Positions 1-10,530 of a stretch of 10,530 bases of DNA are shown here, piece by piece; the first letter of the stretch is position 1, and each line of letters begins with the position of its first letter. Origin of the DNA: Okeania sp. (GTDB taxonomy: Bacteria; Cyanobacteriota; Cyanobacteriia; Cyanobacteriales; Microcoleaceae). Under the pieces are notes generated by a model that made no database searches, was not told the origin of the DNA, and was given only the letters and a program-made list of their open reading frames with translations. The DNA is taken from positions 1 to 10,530 of the forward strand of contig NZ_JAYKGW010000203.1 in the NCBI RefSeq assembly GCF_035285525.1. The letters run 5' to 3'. The translations under genes were made by a program, and so were the position numbers.

Positions 1-210
1 CGCTCAATGCTTACTATTGTGCAATAGATAATTTTCTGATAGCGCTCAATGCTTACTATTGTGCAATAGATAATTTTCTGATGGCTATCAATGCTTACTA
101 TTGTGCAATAGATAATTTTCTGATGGCTATCAATGCTTACTATTGTGCAATAGATAATTTTCTGATAGCGCTCAATGCTTAACTATTCCACAATAGATAA
201 TTTTTTTTTG
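1..210. repeat. Tandem array of a 42-bp unit: 4 full copies (1-42, 43-84, 85-126, 127-168) plus a degenerate fifth (169-~210). The array continues beyond the left window edge.
   Basis: Unit is cgctcaatgcttactattgtgcaatagataattttctgatag. The copies differ only at the junctions (..atagCGCTc.. versus ..atggCTATc..). Each unit holds the palindrome CTATTG-tg-CAATAG. The fifth unit has a 1-nt insertion (gcttAactatt) and ends in a T9 run. Confidence 0.95.
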
Positions 211-211
211 C

Positions 212-254
212 ACTTACGCAGGCAAATCCAGAAACCAGATTTATTTGTGTAAGT
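212..254 (+). repeat. Short hairpin repeat, family copy R1 (ACTTACGCAG...TGTGTAAGT)
   Basis: The 5' arm ACTTACGCAGGCAAATC pairs with the 3' arm GATTTATTTGTGTAAGT. Three of the four non-Watson-Crick positions are G.T (G.U) on the + strand and the fourth is a C.A mismatch. About 85% identical to 9479-9519. Confidence 0.8.
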
Positions 255-300
255 TACAGCCATTTTTCTTAAACAAACCCAGCTTATTAATTTTGATAGA

Positions 301-392
301 ACTTACGCAGAAACCGGGTTTATCAAAGAAATTTGGTGATTTGAGCAACAAGAACGGTAATAAACCCGGTTTCTTGATTGCTTTGCGTAAGT
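301..392 (+). repeat. Long-hairpin (MITE-like) element R2
   Basis: ACTTACGCA (301-309) plus GAAACCGGGTTTA (310-322) pairs with TAAACCCGGTTTC (361-373) and TGCGTAAGT (384-392). There is a 10-nt bulge (374-383) on the 3' arm and a ~38-nt loop. Confidence 0.8.
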
Positions 393-424
393 CTGGTTTG
401 ATTGAAAGTAAGAGGAAACCTAAT

Positions 425-1600
425 ATGTCAGAGCAGAACAAAAGTCAATGGGAAAAAAATGCCGAACGGCAAAAAGATGACGATCGCCGTAGAAGAGACA
501 AAGAAGAGTGGAAAGCATTTCAGGAAGCAGAGAACGCTAGAAGAAAACGGGACAGCTATTATTCTCGTCAAGAAGCAGAGGCTACTTTGAATATACTAGA
601 AGCATTACTAGCTTTATGTTGTAGCGCAACAAAATTAATTATCAAAAGTTTTACTAAACCCAAAGAAATCCAAGAAATAATAGATAATGCTCTCGACAAT
701 ATTCCTATCATTGGATGGCTCAATGGCTGGATCGAACAATTCAATCAAGATATTAAGAAAAGTGAAGACGCATTCAAGAAATTCGGTAGTAATTATTGGA
801 TTCGCTGGTATTTGTTGTCATCTGTCAATGCCATTATGATGTCTATTTACCGATGCGGAGTAATCTGGCTTTTTTTAGTATTTTGGTCTTGGTTTTTCTC
901 ATATTCTGTGGGAACTATAATCCCGGAAGGAGTTATAACAATATCGAGTTCGGGTAAAGATTTATTCATTGTACTTGGAGAAAAAGTTGGCTTCCTCGCT
1001 CAAATATTTATCAAGTACGTTCCAATAAATGTTGCATTAATTTGGTGGCTGGCTATGGGACCACCAGCAGTCCGTCAAAATCAATTAATAAATCTAGTAA
1101 TTAAAACACTTCCCTTCCTGATTAAAACACTTGTAGATATTACTTACTGGACTATTTGGTTATTCGTCTATCCATTGATAGCATTGGTTTTATCTTTACT
1201 TTTAGCAGGCACAGGAATTTTGATAAACTCATTAATTTCAACTGCTTTTACTAACCAAGATGGATTTGTTTTCGTTTTGGAAAAATTTGTAGATAATTTC
1301 AGTTCTATCATTGCATTTGTCGGCGAGACAATATATCTGAGGTTCCCACCATCACACATACGCAGGGGTATGACCTGCTTAACCATAGCTAAAATTCTTG
1401 CAGGTTTGTTGTTTTTGCAACAGCCCCAACTGGCTAGTTTAATAGATACTCTGGAAATGCCGTTTTTAATTAGCTTGATGCGTGGTTGGTTAATAGCACA
1501 AATATTGTGGCTCTTCATCGCTGATACTTTTGTGCGAAAGGCTATTTTATGGTGTTTCCATCAGGGAACATCTATTGGGAGAAGCAGTCGTTCAGAATAG
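425..1600 (+). CDS. Multi-pass integral membrane protein of unrecognised family (391 aa). It has a highly charged N-terminal ~50 aa followed by roughly 7-9 hydrophobic helices.
   Basis: Long ORF in AT-rich DNA. ATG 425 is preceded by AGAGGAAA (411-418). The N-terminus is MSEQNKSQWEKNAERQKDDDRRRRDKEEW..., followed by W/F/L/I-rich segments such as VIWLFLVFWSWFF and WTIWLFVYPLIALVLSLLLAG. The TTG-245 extension consists of the R1/R2 repeats, so I do not treat it as coding. Confidence 0.7.
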   Translation: MSEQNKSQWEKNAERQKDDDRRRRDKEEWKAFQEAENARRKRDSYYSRQEAEATLNILEALLALCCSATKLIIKSFTKPKEIQEIIDNALDNIPIIGWLNGWIEQFNQDIKKSEDAFKKFGSNYWIRWYLLSSVNAIMMSIYRCGVIWLFLVFWSWFFSYSVGTIIPEGVITISSSGKDLFIVLGEKVGFLAQIFIKYVPINVALIWWLAMGPPAVRQNQLINLVIKTLPFLIKTLVDITYWTIWLFVYPLIALVLSLLLAGTGILINSLISTAFTNQDGFVFVLEKFVDNFSSIIAFVGETIYLRFPPSHIRRGMTCLTIAKILAGLLFLQQPQLASLIDTLEMPFLISLMRGWLIAQILWLFIADTFVRKAILWCFHQGTSIGRSSRSE

Positions 1601-1603
1601 TTA

Positions 1604-1693
1604 GGACTTGCATAATTAAAGAAACTGGGTTTATTGCCCTAGTTATTATTTTTCGCTTTCACCCGTTGATAAATCCGGTTTCTGCGTAAGCCC
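1604..1693 (+). repeat. Long-hairpin element R3. Same family as R2 but in the opposite orientation (bulge on the 5' arm).
   Basis: GGACTTGCA-taattaaa-GAAACTGGGTTTAT (1604-1634) pairs with ATAAATCCGGTTTC-TGCGTAAG (1669-1690). Both internal non-Watson-Crick pairs are G.U on the + strand. It begins 4 nt after the stop codon of the 425-1600 CDS and may also terminate it. Confidence 0.7.
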
Positions 1694-1730
1694 TAGTCAA
1701 AAACGACAAAATGTGATAATTATAAACAAA

Positions 1731-1807
1731 GTCAGACTTAACAATTATATCAGGAGGAATCTACTATGAAATACCAAGCTTTTTTCAGTTATATAGAATC
1801 CGGGTAA
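1731..1807 (+). pseudogene. Remnant of the leader, RBS and first ~9 codons of a paralogue of the TPR gene at 9572
   Basis: 1731-1792 matches 9537-9598 at 54 of 62 positions. The match includes CAGGAGGAAT, the ATG (1766) and MKY..FFSY. Homology stops at ~1792 and the frame ends after 13 codons (MKYQAFFSYIESG*). Confidence 0.6.
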
Positions 1808-2010
1808 TTAGTTATCGTAGTTTGTAACACAGCCTTCAAGGCTGTAACAAGCAGGATGCTTGAACTGCAAAATTGAATCTTTAAGTAGTTATAGAGCTAT
1901 AAACGTACACTGTATAACCGGATTATATATTATTTAACCATAAGTTATGTTCTAATTTTAACCCCCTGTTAAATTAAGATTGGTTCAAATAGAAATAAGC
2001 AAGGTCATTT

Positions 2011-3195
2011 ATGAGCAAAATCAGGTTTTTGATTATCACTTTAATCAGCTTTTTAACTGTTGTATTGCCGACTATACTAAACAAAACTTTCTCTATTTTT
2101 CTCTGTGGTTTACTGAGTTTTAATTCAGTGGGATGTTATGCAAACTTTAAGGATAATTCTGCCCAGGCAACTTTATCTCCCACTAATACTGAAATAACTA
2201 AAGTATCAATCACAATCGGACAAATACCCAGAGCCAGAAAACCAAATATTAATTTGGATTTGCAACAGGCACTACCACAGGATTTTTTGATTACTACTCA
2301 AATGCCTTTTAGTTCTGGTAAAAGAGAAATTTATCTCATTTCTCCCTCAACCAAAGCTCAACAAATTTATACAGTTAATTTACCTAATGCCAGGTTTCAA
2401 TTATATGGAATTAAATTTCAAAATATACCTGTTATTGATGAGAGTAAATTAACCAAAAGAAATCGCCTAATTCTTAATAGAATTAAGCCTGAAAGTCTCA
2501 ATGATTTTCAAGTCGCATTTGAAAACAATAAATTATCAAAAATTGTTCTAGCTAACGGCAATCAAGGAGAATTTACTGACACTCAAGCTATTATTAAATC
2601 AGCTAATGGTCAAATAATAGAAACTATTGATTTTTCCCAGGTAAATCGAACTGAAGAAACTTTAATTGCTACTACTAAGTCGATGTTATTAACATCATCT
2701 AACTGCAATCAAAATGTTAGTTCAAAATTAGATAATATAGCCGACTTTGTTGGAGTTCAGGGAAATAAACTAGCCTCTAGTGAAAATCAAATTACTCGAA
2801 ATGTCGGATTAGCTTTAGCTGCTACTTCTGCGGCCTTAAAAAATAATATTAATTCTAGACAATCCCTACCTATTGCTAGCTGTGAACGAGCTGTTCAATG
2901 TAATGAAAAGCGGGTAAGTGGAGCTAGTGAAATGAGAAGCGATTTATTTGAAATTCCTAGAGGAGCTAATCCTAAAGTTGCTTTAGAATACGATTTTTTT
3001 GACATTCCCGACACTATTGAACTGTATTTAGATGGTAAAACAATCTATTCTGATGGTCCTAAATCAGAACGACATCAAAGAACATTAGATTTACCAAATA
3101 ATGCAGAATATGTTGGGGTGCGCTTGATTGGAAATCTAGACCCAAAAACTCGATGGTGGTATGTAATTTCTTGTTCCGAAAGTGCAATAGAATAA
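2011..3195 (+). CDS. Hypothetical exported or membrane-anchored protein (394 aa), family not recognised
   Basis: Long ORF with an ATG and AAGG about 8 nt upstream. Hydrophobic N-terminus (MSKIRFLIITLISFLTVVLPTIL...FLCGLLSFNSVGC). Polar N/Q/S/T-rich body. Cys-containing C-terminal segment ...EYDFFDIPDTIELYLDGKTIYSDG...WWYVISC. Confidence 0.65.
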   Translation: MSKIRFLIITLISFLTVVLPTILNKTFSIFLCGLLSFNSVGCYANFKDNSAQATLSPTNTEITKVSITIGQIPRARKPNINLDLQQALPQDFLITTQMPFSSGKREIYLISPSTKAQQIYTVNLPNARFQLYGIKFQNIPVIDESKLTKRNRLILNRIKPESLNDFQVAFENNKLSKIVLANGNQGEFTDTQAIIKSANGQIIETIDFSQVNRTEETLIATTKSMLLTSSNCNQNVSSKLDNIADFVGVQGNKLASSENQITRNVGLALAATSAALKNNINSRQSLPIASCERAVQCNEKRVSGASEMRSDLFEIPRGANPKVALEYDFFDIPDTIELYLDGKTIYSDGPKSERHQRTLDLPNNAEYVGVRLIGNLDPKTRWWYVISCSESAIE

Positions 3196-3494
3196 CCAAC
3201 GCTCCTTGTGGTGATGATGAAATACAGGTTTCTTATGATCAAAAGTCTGAAAATTATCATAGTTACAAAGTAGACAATGAAGCTTGCTTCCTTAACACTC
3301 AGGGTTATAATGTTAATTTTGTTTTTAACGTTATGGTCAGTAATAAACAATTTATTGCGCCAGACCATGAAAGTCAAAAAAAAGTTGAGAATTGCCAAAC
3401 AACAGATTTGAATATATTCGGTCTGTTTGGTAAAGATACTATTAGAACAACTATCAATAAACCTAATAATTATATCACAAACTACACGAGATAA
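3153..3494 (+). CDS. ORF of uncertain status overlapping the end of the previous gene. It could be a separate small protein or a -1-frame continuation of 2011-3195.
   Basis: This frame is open from 3102. The translation looks like a soluble protein (CGDDEIQVSYDQKSENYHSYKVDNEACFLNTQGYNVNF...). There is no obvious RBS. A 113-codon open frame is unusual by chance in DNA this AT-rich, but the opposite strand is also open here. Confidence 0.3.
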   Translation: MVVCNFLFRKCNRITNAPCGDDEIQVSYDQKSENYHSYKVDNEACFLNTQGYNVNFVFNVMVSNKQFIAPDHESQKKVENCQTTDLNIFGLFGKDTIRTTINKPNNYITNYTR

Positions 3495-3710
3495 AATCAT
3501 GTTTTAAACCCTGGTAAAATAACTATAAAAATTGTTGAAAAAAAATGGAAAAATATATGTTCTTACTTGGGGAGAAAGTACAGGAATTTTGCCGACATTG
3601 AATGAGTAGCTGTCTGGAAGTTTATGGGGAGAAGTCGATAAAAAATTAATAAAAAAAAGTCAACGAAATTTTATCTAATAAAATCTACTCTCTACCAGAG
3701 TAAAAATATT

Positions 3711-3740
3711 TTGCCAAAGCCGTAAATTTGGCAATATAAT
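3711..3740 (+). promoter_or_regulatory. Candidate sigma70-type promoter (TTGCCA-N18-TATAAT) with an embedded 8-bp inverted repeat
   Basis: TTGCCA at 3711-3716 and TATAAT at 3735-3740, about 130 nt upstream of ATG 3873. TTGCCAAA (3711-3718) and TTTGGCAA (3727-3734) form a perfect inverted repeat spanning the spacer. Confidence 0.35.
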
Positions 3741-3872
3741 ACTAAAAATCTAACCAACTAGGTACAAATTTGAATTGGTAAAATTATTGTACTGTGCACA
3801 TCTAGCTCACGATATTTCTACCTCGTAACAACGGGGAGTGCTGTAACAATCTGATTAAGGAGAATTAAAACT

Positions 3873-5393
3873 ATGAAAAGAAAACATAAATTATTTATCT
3901 TAAGTCTACTTTTAGTCTTACTTCTGAAAATTGGTTTCTCATGGCAAATAGCGATCGCTAAACCCACACCCACCAACCAACAACCAGAAAAAATTAGCCA
4001 AACAGAAGCCACTCCCACTGAAACCGAAACCGAAACCGAAACTAAAGTAGATACTGAAGCAGAAGACTCCTACGAAACCCTGCTCGAAGCAGATTTTCTG
4101 TATCAGCAAGGAGAAAGAGAAGCAGCAGAAGAACTTTACCGAAAAGTCAAAACACCCTTTGCATCTCATCAAAACACCATGTTTTCAGACCCCATAAACA
4201 ACACCGAAAATTTACCAACCGAGATTCAAACCGAGTGGGAAGAAGCAAAAAATGCTGCTGACAAAAATGATAATCTGGAGATGTTGCAAGAGTTTGTAGC
4301 ACAACATCCAGAATTTGTTCCTGGTCATTTATTCTTAGCTAAAACATTACAAAAGAACGAAAAGAAAAAAGAAGCTCTGCAAGTTCTAGAAAAAGCCTCC
4401 AGTATTTTTCCCGACTCAGTAGAAATAGTTGAAGCTCATGTCAAAGCACTGAGAAAAGAAAAAGACTATTTAGAAGCATCCATCGCAGCTCGTCAATTTG
4501 TGTTAGTTAATCCAGAGCATCCAGAAGCAGCAAGGTTTCTAGAAATTGCTGACGAGAACTTTGAGAAATTCCAGAAGAAAATTAAGGGGCAAATGGTAGG
4601 CAAAGGTATCTTGGGAACAGCTATCCGAGTTGGTGGTTGCGCTGTACTCGGTAATTGTAATGTATTGGGAACTGTTCTGGGAGAAGGCATTAAAATGGGT
4701 AGTTTGCTGCTCCAAGGAGAATCAGGTTTAGGCAGTCGAGTAGCAGAAGCATATAAGAAACAACTCTCACTGGTGGAAGATGAGGAAGTAGTCGAATATG
4801 TGAGTAAAATTGGTAATTCTATTGCGGAGTTAATGGGTAGAGATGATTTTGAATACGAATTTTATGTAGTGAAAGATGATTCCCTCAATGCTTTTGCTTT
4901 ACCTGGGGGTAAAGTATTTGTGAATACTGGATCGATTCTTAATACTAATTCTGAAGCAGAGTTAGCAGGTTTACTTACCCATGAAGTTGCTCATGCAGTT
5001 CTTTCCCACGGTTTTCAAAGAGTTGTGACTACTAACTTGTACGATAGTGCAGGGGGTGTTGTTCGTGATGCGTTAAAAACTAACATTCCTATTAGCAGTA
5101 TTGCTACAAGTTTGATTAGTTTACGTTACAGTCGGAGCAATGAGCGTCAAGCGGATATTGTTGGTACTCGTGTTTTAGCTACTGCTGGTTATGCTGCTGA
5201 TGGTTTAAGAAATTTTATGGCAACTCTGGATGAAAAAAAAGGTGGTAAACGTTCTTTGGGTTTTCTTTCCAGTCACCCCCAGTCAGATGATCGGGTTGAC
5301 TATCTGGAACAATTAATTGAATATAATGGTTACAATCGTTATGCTTTTGAAGGAGTGGAGAAACATAGAGGGATTCAGGAAAAGTTAATGTAA
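3873..5393 (+). CDS. M48-family zinc metallopeptidase (506 aa) with a signal peptide and an N-terminal helical, TPR-like region
   Basis: AAGGAG at 3858-3863 precedes the ATG. Signal-like MKRKHKLFILSLLLVLLLKIGFSWQIAIA. Family motifs present: NAFALPGGKVFVNTG, HEVAH (4980-4994) and the downstream SRSNERQADIVGTRVLATAGY. Confidence 0.9.
   Translation: MKRKHKLFILSLLLVLLLKIGFSWQIAIAKPTPTNQQPEKISQTEATPTETETETETKVDTEAEDSYETLLEADFLYQQGEREAAEELYRKVKTPFASHQNTMFSDPINNTENLPTEIQTEWEEAKNAADKNDNLEMLQEFVAQHPEFVPGHLFLAKTLQKNEKKKEALQVLEKASSIFPDSVEIVEAHVKALRKEKDYLEASIAARQFVLVNPEHPEAARFLEIADENFEKFQKKIKGQMVGKGILGTAIRVGGCAVLGNCNVLGTVLGEGIKMGSLLLQGESGLGSRVAEAYKKQLSLVEDEEVVEYVSKIGNSIAELMGRDDFEYEFYVVKDDSLNAFALPGGKVFVNTGSILNTNSEAELAGLLTHEVAHAVLSHGFQRVVTTNLYDSAGGVVRDALKTNIPISSIATSLISLRYSRSNERQADIVGTRVLATAGYAADGLRNFMATLDEKKGGKRSLGFLSSHPQSDDRVDYLEQLIEYNGYNRYAFEGVEKHRGIQEKLM
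4020..4043 (+). repeat. Hexanucleotide repeat (GAAACC)x3 plus GAAACT inside the M48 gene, encoding (ET)4
   Basis: gaaaccgaaaccgaaaccgaaact, read directly; in frame. Confidence 0.85.
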
Positions 5394-5409
5394 AAAATGG
5401 AGCGATCTA

Positions 5410-5553
5410 ATATCATGTCGGGATAAGAGCCCAATCAAAAAAACTTGCTCCTCCTTTTCCTCTCTTGGGAAGGGTTAGGGGTGGGTTAACTTGTAATTCA
5501 TTCCTCCTGACTCTTTCCCTCTTTATCTATAACTATTTAATCGGACATGATAT
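5410..5553. repeat. Segment of ~145 bp bounded by inverted repeats (possible MITE or decayed element) just downstream of the M48 gene
   Basis: ATATCATGTC (5410-5419) and GACATGATAT (5544-5553) are perfect 10-bp inverted repeats, with partial extension (..GGGAT / ATCGGA..). The interior is rich in polypyrimidine and polypurine tracts. Confidence 0.4.
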
Positions 5554-5608
5554 AACTCCACAATTTCCATTCTTTAGTGTAAAAGGGCGATCGGTAGCAA
5601 TGGAACAG

Positions 5609-5646
5609 ACTTACGCAGACTCTAGATATAGTGCCTTTGTGTAAGT
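5609..5646 (+). repeat. Short hairpin repeat, family copy R4
   Basis: ACTTACGCAG (5609-5618) pairs with TTGTGTAAGT (5637-5646) through two G.U positions. It is followed by AGTCCTG (5645-5651) ... CAGGACT (5673-5679). Confidence 0.75.
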
Positions 5647-5702
5647 CCTGAAACAATGAAAATTTATGCACACAGGACTAAAGCCATGAACGTTATTAGT
5701 AG

Positions 5703-5729
5703 GGTGCGTTAGCCTCAGCATAACGCACC
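5703..5729. other. Perfect 9-bp stem with a 9-nt loop
   Basis: GGTGCGTTA-gcctcagca-TAACGCACC, read directly. Confidence 0.7.
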
Positions 5730-5733
5730 GATA

Positions 5734-5763
5734 CGCTATATATAGCGCCTTTCCGTAAGTCCT
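5734..5763 (+). repeat. Partial hairpin-family copy R5 (3' arm only) preceded by a perfect 14-bp palindrome
   Basis: CGCTATATATAGCG (5734-5747) then CCTTTCCGTAAGTCCT. This parallels tagatatagtgCCTTTGTGTAAGTCCT at 5624-5649. Confidence 0.5.
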
Positions 5764-5907
5764 ATCACAGTTAAAGCAATGTGCGCACTTAATATTTACA
5801 AATCACAGGAACTGTCCAATAACTAAAAGTCTTATTTTATTAAGCAATTTATTCCTTCTGTTCCCTGCGCACAGCGCTATATTATTTGGGAAATCAATCA
5901 AATAATT

Positions 5908-9291: not shown

Positions 9292-9504
9292 ATGCAGCTA
9301 ACTAAAAATTTTCTGTTTTCAATCAGAAAACTAGGTTTTTCTGTAACTACAATTACTGGATTAGTTATTAATTTAACCACTGAAATAGCATTAGCAGGGA
9401 CTGCATGGCAAAAGCGAGAAATTACCAGGATTAACATATATATTTGCCATGCAGTAGATAATTTTTTTTGCTATTCAGACTTACGCAGGCAAACCCAGAA
9501 ATGA
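9292..9504 (+). CDS. Small 70-aa ORF with a hydrophobic N-terminus and a Cys-containing tail; unknown function
   Basis: This is the strongest RBS in the window: AGGAG at 9281-9285, 6 nt before the ATG. Translation is MQLTKNFLFSIRKLGFSVTTITGLVINLTTEIALAG...INIYICHAVDNFFCYSD... The last ~17 codons run into the dispersed repeat at 9454-9522, so the true 3' end is uncertain. Confidence 0.4.
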   Translation: MQLTKNFLFSIRKLGFSVTTITGLVINLTTEIALAGTAWQKREITRINIYICHAVDNFFCYSDLRRQTQK

Positions 9505-9522
9505 GTTTTCCGTGTAAGTCCT
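9454..9522 (+). repeat. Hairpin-family copy R6 with its upstream TAGATAA-T8 segment. Paralogous to 194-254.
   Basis: gtagataattttttttg..ACTTACGCAGGCAAACCCagaaatgagTTTTCCGTGTAAGTCCT aligns with caatagataatttttttttgcACTTACGCAGGCAAATCCagaaaccagATTTATTTGTGTAAGT. Confidence 0.8.
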
Positions 9523-9571
9523 GAGTTGGAAATCAAGTCAAACTTAACAATTCTATCAGGAGGAATTTACG

Positions 9572-10319
9572 ATGAAATATCCAACTTTTTTCAGTTACTT
9601 AACTCTGAGTTCTATCCTAACTTTAACTCCGGTTAAGTTAGGATTAGCTCAAACTCAAAATTCACTGTTAAACTATCAAAAGATTGTACAAGATCAAATC
9701 AGTCACAACTTAGGAAATCAGATAAATAGACTTTATCAACAAGGAGAGAAACAATTAAAAGCAGGTCAATTGCAGGGAGCTTTAAATAGTTATCAGCAGG
9801 CTTTAGCTATTGCTAAAAAAATGGGTAATTCCCAGTTTTTACAAGGGTTAATTTTACAAAGGATCGGAATAGTTTATGGATACCTAAGCGAGTACAAAAA
9901 AGCATTACAAAACTATGAACAAGCTGGGAAATTTTTTCAAGCAGAAGGGAAAACTAAGGATGTTGCATGGACGCTTATATACATTGGTAACGTTTTCAGA
10001 GATTTACAGAATTTTGAAGAAGCAGAAAAATTTTATCAGCAAGCTTTAGAAATTAGTAAAAAAATTGGCAGTCGAGATGTGGAAGGAGAAAGTATCAATG
10101 GTTTAGGCAGCCTCTACAATATTCAGGAGAACTAGGATTTAGCACTGAAATATTATCAACAAGCTTTGCAGCTTAACCAAGAAGAAGGCGATCGCCAAGG
10201 TGAAGGAGTAGTTATTAACAACATTGGAGTCGTTTATCGACAACAAAGTAAATACCAACAGGCGTTAGATGCTTACAAAGCAGCTTTGAAGATTGACAGA
10301 GAAATTAGTAATCGCCTTA
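9572..10319 (+). pseudogene. Exported tetratricopeptide-repeat protein, disrupted by an in-frame TAG (10133-10135) and truncated at its 3' end by an IS insertion at 10320
   Basis: AGGAGG (9560-9565) precedes the ATG. Signal-like MKYPTFFSYLTLSSILTLTPVKLGLA-QT. About 40-aa TPR units follow (..ALNSYQQALAIAKKMG.., ..ALQNYEQAGKFFQAEG.., ..AEKFYQQALEISKKIG.., ..ALKYYQQALQLNQEEGDRQGEG.., ..ALDAYKAALKIDREISNR). ORFs 9572-10135 and 10166-10348 are in the same frame. Confidence 0.85.
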
Positions 10320-10385: not shown

Positions 10386-10530
10386 ATGAGTAAGTCCAAG
10401 TCCAAGTCCAAGTCCAAGTCCAAGTCCAAGTCTAAGCCTAAGCCTCAATACAAGATCAAGAATTGGTCTGAGTATAATGCATCCTTGAAGCAACGAGGCA
10501 GCCTAACATTTTGGCTTAATCAAGAGGTAA
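10386..10530 (+). CDS. IS5-family DDE transposase, N-terminal fragment (partial at the window edge)
   Basis: MSKSKSKSKSKSKSKSKPKPQYKIKNWSEYNASLKQRGSLTFWLNQEV. The NW.EYN..L.QRGSLTFW motif is the characteristic N-terminal signature of IS5/IS903-type transposases. Confidence 0.75.
   Translation, partial: MSKSKSKSKSKSKSKSKPKPQYKIKNWSEYNASLKQRGSLTFWLNQEV
10392..10445 (+). repeat. Hexanucleotide microsatellite (AAGTCC)x6 plus AAGTCT and AAGCCT x2, encoding (KS)7(KP)2
   Basis: Read directly. In frame at the 5' end of the transposase ORF. Confidence 0.9.

Follow-up and report, generated by a model that had tools for sequence, protein, structure and literature searches.

Two copies of a widespread IS701-related MITE, very probably inserted independently, flank an orphan membrane-protein gene in Okeania sp.

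Introduction

Among prokaryotes, MITEs that stem from DDE-type insertion sequences, such as the Correia elements of Neisseria and, in cyanobacteria, Nezha and those of Microcystis and Anabaena, are non-coding sequences of about 100 bp with terminal inverted repeats (TIRs) and a target-site duplication (TSD) of fixed length. They are dispersed in intergenic copies that often abut genes, and fold as long hairpins. The family of the two elements described here, R2 and R3, shares all of these features, even though it is set apart from the known prokaryotic MITEs by the lack of an Rfam entry and by its inner motif, GAAACCGGGTTT...AAACCCGGTTTC.

With regard to insertion sequences, the reference is ISPlag1 from Planktothrix, a member of the IS701 group with a 29-bp TIR, whose description also includes short ISPlag1 remnants of 197 bp (Christiansen et al. 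2008, PMC2464740). R2 and R3 have in common with ISPlag1 and other IS701-family insertion sequences a 5-bp AT-rich TSD and the outer 13 nt of their ends (CAGGACTTACGCA), which are identical to the start of the published ISPlag1 TIR (PMC2464740). However, they do not carry a transposase gene and, after nt 13, they continue with GAAACCGGGTTT instead of the AGCACGCTATATATAG of the insertion sequences. MITEs may also come in pairs, and those around integrons or mcr-5 are described as MITE-bounded composite transposons (PMC10969869). The arrangement of R2, a gene, and R3 resembles these composites in that a gene lies between two MITE copies but, contrary to them, it shows no TSD of the whole unit, one of its MITEs has a TSD of its own, and no second occurrence of it is known.

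The window analysed here, meaning the whole stretch of DNA of 10,530 bp, is an entire contig of Okeania sp. with 34% G+C and long intergenic spacers (410-680 nt). A previous sequence-only reading proposed that the gene between R2 and R3 was the cargo of a composite or MITE-pair-bounded element or, alternatively, a gene insulated by 5'-UTR and terminator structures. We consider it very probable that a widespread IS701-related MITE inserted twice, separately and independently, beside an ordinary orphan gene, which gave R2 and R3.

Two related hairpins around one gene

The features of the locus, with positions in the window, are the following.

292..296, no strand: left TSD copy of R2 (TTTGA), abutting the element end
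297..396, + strand: R2, full-length MITE of ~100 nt (89.3 bits, E 5.9e-22, covariance model R1), with ends TAGAACTTACGCA...TGCGTAAGTCTGG, inner stem GAAACCGGGTTTAT/ATAAACCCGGTTTC, and the bulge on the 3' side
397..401, no strand: right TSD copy of R2 (TTTGA), equal to 292-296 and abutting the element end
425..1600, + strand: orphan gene for a helical membrane protein of 391 aa with a highly charged N-terminal stretch of 54 residues
1602..1695, - strand: R3, degenerate copy of the same MITE as R2 (51.8 bits, E 4.8e-12, model R1)

Two hairpins with common arm modules had been described here from the sequence alone; both are present, with the modules as listed, and both fold, since each copy holds a long internal inverted repeat. 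The resulting long, bulged hairpins have folding energies of -33 kcal/mol (z -3.9) for R2 and -24.5 kcal/mol (z -2.5) for R3. The conserved element ends, YAG[G/A]ACTTACGCA and TGCGTAAGTCCTR, place R2 at 297-396 (100 nt) and R3 at 1602-1695 (94 nt), neither of them inside a long ORF, so that the elements stand while their former limits, 301-392 and 1604-1693, have to be widened by a few bases. The tight bracketing of the gene is likewise maintained, although its distances change from 32 nt to 28 nt between the end of R2 and the ATG (425), and from 4 nt to 1 nt between the TAG stop (1598-1600) and R3.

When R2 is aligned with the reverse complement of R3, their parts follow one another in the same order: outer stem, inner stem, a loop of ~36 nt, inner stem, a bulge of ~8-10 nt, and outer stem. 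That the two copies are mutually inverted, as had been claimed, agrees with the strand-specific scores of a covariance model containing no window sequence, which gives 89.3 bits on the + strand versus 35.6 on the - strand for R2, and 51.8 on the - strand versus 23.4 on the + strand for R3. The motif ACTTACGCA (at most one mismatch) occurs 12 times in the window, versus 1.65 expected, and the module GAAACCGGGTTTA/TAAACCCGGTTTC 10 times, versus 2.7 in shuffles, each count being reached in 0 of 200 shuffles. R2 and R3 are 63% identical, and R2 is nearer to copies from Dapis and Microcoleaceae (73-74% identity) than to R3.

The family in other genomes

Relatives were searched for with a 14-mer from the left end of R2/R3 in one genome per prokaryotic species, and 117 stretches matched. 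A 14-mer is too short for this purpose, so most of these matches are chance ones in unrelated bacteria, and only the 23 cyanobacterial loci were used further. In about 20 of the 23, the match goes beyond the 14-mer and covers the whole element of ~100 nt; the genera include Brasilonema, Oscillatoria, Phormidium, Microcoleus, Dapis, Prochloron, and Okeania (strain SIO2F4), together with several MAGs. A single copy is found in 18 of these 23 loci. The external copies are mostly intergenic (20 of 23), several of them lying 2-45 nt from ORF ends, and copies of the element are known from more than 10 genomes.

The covariance model (model R1) was built from 12 full-length external copies belonging to eight genomes or MAGs, with no sequence from the window. 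Its sources are Brasilonema, Dapis, Okeania SIO2F4, Oscillatoria, Phormidium, Prochloron, and two unclassified MAGs, and the 12 copies can be aligned end to end, loops included. As this external-only model matches R2 and R3 from end to end, the family predates both this locus and the genus Okeania. Across 23 aligned copies, the termini YAGGACTTACGCA/TGCGTAAGTCCTR are kept, with 87% of the terminal helix cells paired.

The same termini mark 49 sites in 493 kb of marine metagenome loci, where clusters are present and adjacent copies are mostly in direct orientation. The 34 kb available from two other Okeania strains hold no copy, and thus the element is not uniformly dense in the genus. No copy was found in viral contigs, and plasmids gave only one weak match, an unannotated one in Kovacikia. 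The whole window yields 0 matches in Rfam at E up to 1, and a literature search with sequence strings returned no description of a family combining the inner motif with a 3'-side bulge, the ISPlag1 TIR being the only match. One R2-type copy without its right terminus lies inside an ORF of 917 aa in a Microcoleaceae MAG (L048, 2361-2456).

Target-site duplications

A perfect 5-bp TSD is located exactly at the ends of 11 of the 15 external elements. When the right flank is shifted by 1-7 nt, the count drops to 0-1 of 15, and other lengths give 1 of 15 (4 nt) and 0 of 15 (6 nt). One MAG has four copies, each on a different contig, that are 92-95% identical to each other and yet have four different 5-bp TSDs, which is the signature of recent transposition. 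The MAG in question (L025, L080, L095, and L100) is labelled Candidatus Obscuribacterales, a label that stands for a non-photosynthetic relative of cyanobacteria, and its copies suggest a recent burst in the genome so labelled.

Regarding R2, its inner flank equals its outer flank (TTTGA/TTTGA), and therefore it arrived alone, as a single unit; the empty site expected before this insertion is ...AGCTTATTAATTTTGATTGAAAGTAAGAGG... Copies of the family insert singly into AT-rich intergenic DNA, duplicating 5 bp of the target, as R2 did. R3 has no intact TSD (ATAGT on the left, GTCAA at 1696-1700 on the right), so that in its case single-unit insertion follows from the behaviour of the family and not from direct observation. 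R3 would be an older, decayed insertion whose flanks have changed since. By way of speculation, its TSD could have been lost by recombination between copies; a deletion of 3 nt would restore ATAGT on the right.

Taken by its sequence features, the element is a MITE, a non-autonomous DNA transposon of ~100 bp that is widespread in filamentous cyanobacteria. It is short (below ~300 bp) and non-coding, it has TIRs and a TSD of fixed length, and its copies are multiple and dispersed. The MITE-like nature attributed to R2 and R3 from the sequence is thereby borne out by their termini, the TSD, and the dispersed external copies.

Possible roles in RNA

With 28 nt between R2 and the start codon, the element must be inside the 5' UTR or the promoter, or adjoin them; judging by its length, the gap between R2 and the start is too short for a promoter downstream of R2. 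R3, in turn, would provide the transcript with a 3' hairpin. Both elements may incidentally affect the expression of the gene. We regard it as very unlikely, though, that the hairpins serve this gene as dedicated RNA structures, that is, as a 5'-UTR regulatory element and a 3' terminator or stabiliser. Such roles would suit two stable hairpins placed so close to the start and the stop, as well as the substitutions in the inner stem of R3, both of which lead to G:U pairs on the mRNA strand as read from the sequence. The arms also covary across the family (7 pairs, with 19 cells changed on both sides and a score reached in 0 of 500 shuffles); however, covariation is also expected of inverted ends that bind one transposase, and thus it does not discriminate and is no argument for an RNA function.

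What speaks against dedicated structures is that the same element is found beside unrelated genes in many genera, with TSDs of its own, that it matches no Rfam family, and that the homologous gene described below has no such structures. R3 does not qualify as an intrinsic terminator either, as there is no GC-rich stem directly followed by a T/U run: the sequence after R3 is GTCAAAAACG, without a T-run, and the one terminator-like match is internal to R3 and at chance level, with 1.2 expected from shuffles. A promoter scan showed no promoter-like site on the + strand upstream of the gene. The proposal of a gene insulated by 5'-UTR and terminator structures is not supported, on two grounds, namely the unrelated genes adjoined by the element in many genera and the missing T-run.

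The gene between the elements and the composite-transposon alternative

The first 54 residues of the 391-aa product are 54% charged (15 K/R and 14 D/E), and they are followed by ~6-8 hydrophobic segments according to hydropathy. No match to the product was obtained in Pfam, NCBIfam, PADLOC, or the PDB. Both results agree with the previous description of a polytopic membrane protein with a strongly charged head and no recognisable family. Its sole homologue, retrieved from an index search over 5.8e9 clusters and an exhaustive profile search over 1.84e9 representatives, is 47% identical over 333 residues, a conservation that identifies the product as a real protein. The AlphaFold model, based on a two-sequence alignment, is all-helical with a mean pLDDT of 40.6, which makes it unreliable, and fold matches would mean nothing. 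Of the homology and structure checks once proposed for this protein, the first thus produced one homologue and no family, and the second no reliable fold.

The homologue (L001) is encoded on a cyanobacterial contig of 126 kb with different neighbours. There are no hairpins at the ends of that gene and no copy of the element in 21 kb around it. In the window, the GC3 of the gene is 0.33, versus 0.20-0.28 in its neighbours. The gene is probably an ordinary resident of a repeat-dense, strain-variable region, perhaps a recently acquired one.

A composite transposon, in which the MITE copies would be the ends of a unit carrying the membrane-protein gene, appears highly improbable to us. Were the unit to have inserted as a whole, a TSD would be expected just outside the pair, where TTTGA (292-296) and GTCAA (1696-1700) do not match, and the identical flanks of R2 mean that it came by itself. 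The near-consensus outer termini of the two copies do flank one gene, and composites bounded by MITEs are documented in other bacteria (review PMC10969869), but here the two copies are only 63% identical. Two other Okeania strains lack the gene at the syntenic position and its GC3 is slightly over that of the neighbours, as might be the case for cargo; however, a search for the same gene at other loci led only to the homologue without such repeats within 21 kb, and no second copy of the R2-gene-R3 unit exists among 15 billion proteins. Nor do the external copies show a tendency to inverted pairs around genes: in the 23 cyanobacterial loci they are mostly single, and in the marine metagenome loci neighbouring copies are mostly direct. 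Besides, each MITE copy holds both ends, so the relative orientation of R2 and R3 is irrelevant to the transposase and to mobility. The cargo of a composite or MITE-pair-bounded element, as first imagined, does not survive R2's own TSD, the unmatched outer flanks, the repeat-free homologue, and the predominance of single copies.

A variant of this idea is that R2 and R3, inserted separately, now constitute a unit open to being moved whole by an IS701-family transposase, the present locus being the site of assembly. A composite assembled where it lies, and not brought there by a jump, would explain both the TSD of R2 and the absence of an outer one. We hold this to be highly unlikely; if true, it would offer a route for an orphan membrane-protein gene to spread among cyanobacteria.

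Independent insertion of R2 and R3 makes the arrangement an ordinary one and not a gene-carrying transposon. The gene would stay resident while the MITEs would insert singly on either side of it, and its bracketing would be due to the elements that nearly all long spacers of the contig have caught.

A repeat-dense contig

Among the five spacers of more than 300 nt in the window, four hold an element with the termini of R2 and R3. Apart from R2 and R3, the termini recur at 208-259, 5606-5650, 5673-5764, and 9476-9523, which had been missed in the sequence-only reading. These recurrences are listed below together with a duplicated gene fragment.

208..259, + strand: short derivative with an internal deletion and the same termini, formerly named R1 (model R1: 16.9 bits, E 0.0085)
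1724..1791, + strand: duplicated fragment of the TPR gene at 9572-10135, comprising 5' UTR and first codons, 87% identical to 9530-9597
5606..5650, + strand: short hairpin with IS701-type termini (model R1: 20.6 bits, E 8.8e-4)
5673..5764, no strand: ISPlag1-type MITE of 92 nt with right end ...ACGCTATATATAGCGCCTTTCCGTAAGTCCTA, 85% identical to L157 667-757
9476..9523, - strand: short derivative with the same termini, CAGACTTACGCA...GTGTAAGTCCTG (model R1: 24.1 bits, E 1.1e-4)

One arm of the first derivative (212-245) is 79% complementary to 359-392 of R2. The element at 5673-5764, which has an inner TIR motif in agreement with the TIR published for ISPlag1, is a closer ISPlag1-type derivative than R2 and R3.

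The TPR-gene fragment just right of R3 marks this spacer as rearranged DNA. Both copies of the TPR 5' region (1724-1791 and 9530-9597) are preceded by a MITE or derivative on the - strand, at 28 and 6 nt, respectively, and positions 1880-1935 also match L151. The gene after R3 (2011-3494) is related to an Okeania protein of 560 aa but has a frameshift and lacks the C-terminal part, with an ORF at 2011-3195 corresponding to residues 1-392 and another at 3153-3494 corresponding to residues 392-491; the explanation is a pseudogene or else an error in the assembly.

The region is an unstable one: the part homologous to the two other Okeania strains is restricted to positions 1986-5388 of the window, starting ~10-25 nt before the ATG of this next gene. 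In strain SIO1I7, acetate kinase takes the place of the 391-aa gene as the neighbour upstream. Strain SIO3B5 has, after an M48 peptidase gene, a gene of the IS605 OrfB/TnpB type (L121, 3926-5131) that is absent from that place in the window and in SIO1I7.

Further repeats are found along the contig. The spacer at 5394-5907 is a mosaic of dispersed repeats common to marine metagenome contigs (5459-5553, 5606-5650, 5673-5764, and 5771-5867). At positions 1-204, a 42-nt unit, CGCTCAATGCTTACTATTGTGCAATAGATAATTTTCTGATAG, which includes the near-palindrome CTATTG-TG-CAATAG, is repeated 4.8 times in tandem; as this array reaches the end of the contig, its full length may be greater, and none of the 241 loci examined contains it. 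Near the other contig end, positions 10392-10436 hold 7.5 copies of the hexamer AAGTCC.

The likely mobiliser

A metagenome scan for ISPlag1-type ends matched at least 120 stretches. Among the matches listed, six are complete elements that measure 1.3-1.6 kb and have the ends CAGGACTTACGCAAGGACACTATATATAG...; of the five that have flanks, four show a 5-bp TSD. The broken transposase frames of these insertion sequences still hold the TRWKIEEFHREIK signature, and a protein pieced together from parts of two copies reaches 335 bits against the NCBIfam model NF049921 (IS701 family transposase), whose cutoff is 250. The frame is broken in all six full-length IS701-family elements (L143, L144, L151, L165, L186, and L198), and it may be that, in these populations, most of the autonomous partners have died out before the MITEs.

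The shared outer 13 nt, the length of the TSD, and the AT-rich targets point to an IS701-family transposase as the probable mobiliser of the R2/R3 MITE. In this mechanism, a DDE transposase of that family, supplied in trans, would move the MITE copies. The pairing is circumstantial, as these 13 nt are all that the ends of the MITE and of the full-length insertion sequences have in common. The contig has no intact IS701-family transposase with such ends, and no full-length insertion sequence was found among the R2-type loci. One of the external loci, L028, was considered as a candidate autonomous element and turned out to be a rearranged fragment.

IS200/IS605 elements and REPs are not known to duplicate their target or to have TIRs. 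A REP-like or IS200/IS605-type palindromic nature of R2 and R3, with movement by a single-strand transposase (Y1/RAYT or TnpA) rather than a DDE enzyme, is therefore barely conceivable: the long hairpin shape and the IS605 OrfB/TnpB gene in a related Okeania contig would fit, but a fixed 5-bp TSD and true TIRs in common with IS701-family elements do not.

Concluding remarks

The reading of R2 and R3 as independent MITE insertions has slight significance beyond annotation. It portrays this Okeania contig as repeat-dense, decaying, and strain-variable DNA, and the family model would be useful for masking such repeats in scans and assemblies of cyanobacterial genomes. It also puts on record a MITE family, widespread in cyanobacteria, that has IS701-type ends, a 5-bp TSD, and no Rfam entry, and whose members may be mistaken for regulatory hairpins, terminators, or transposon boundaries.
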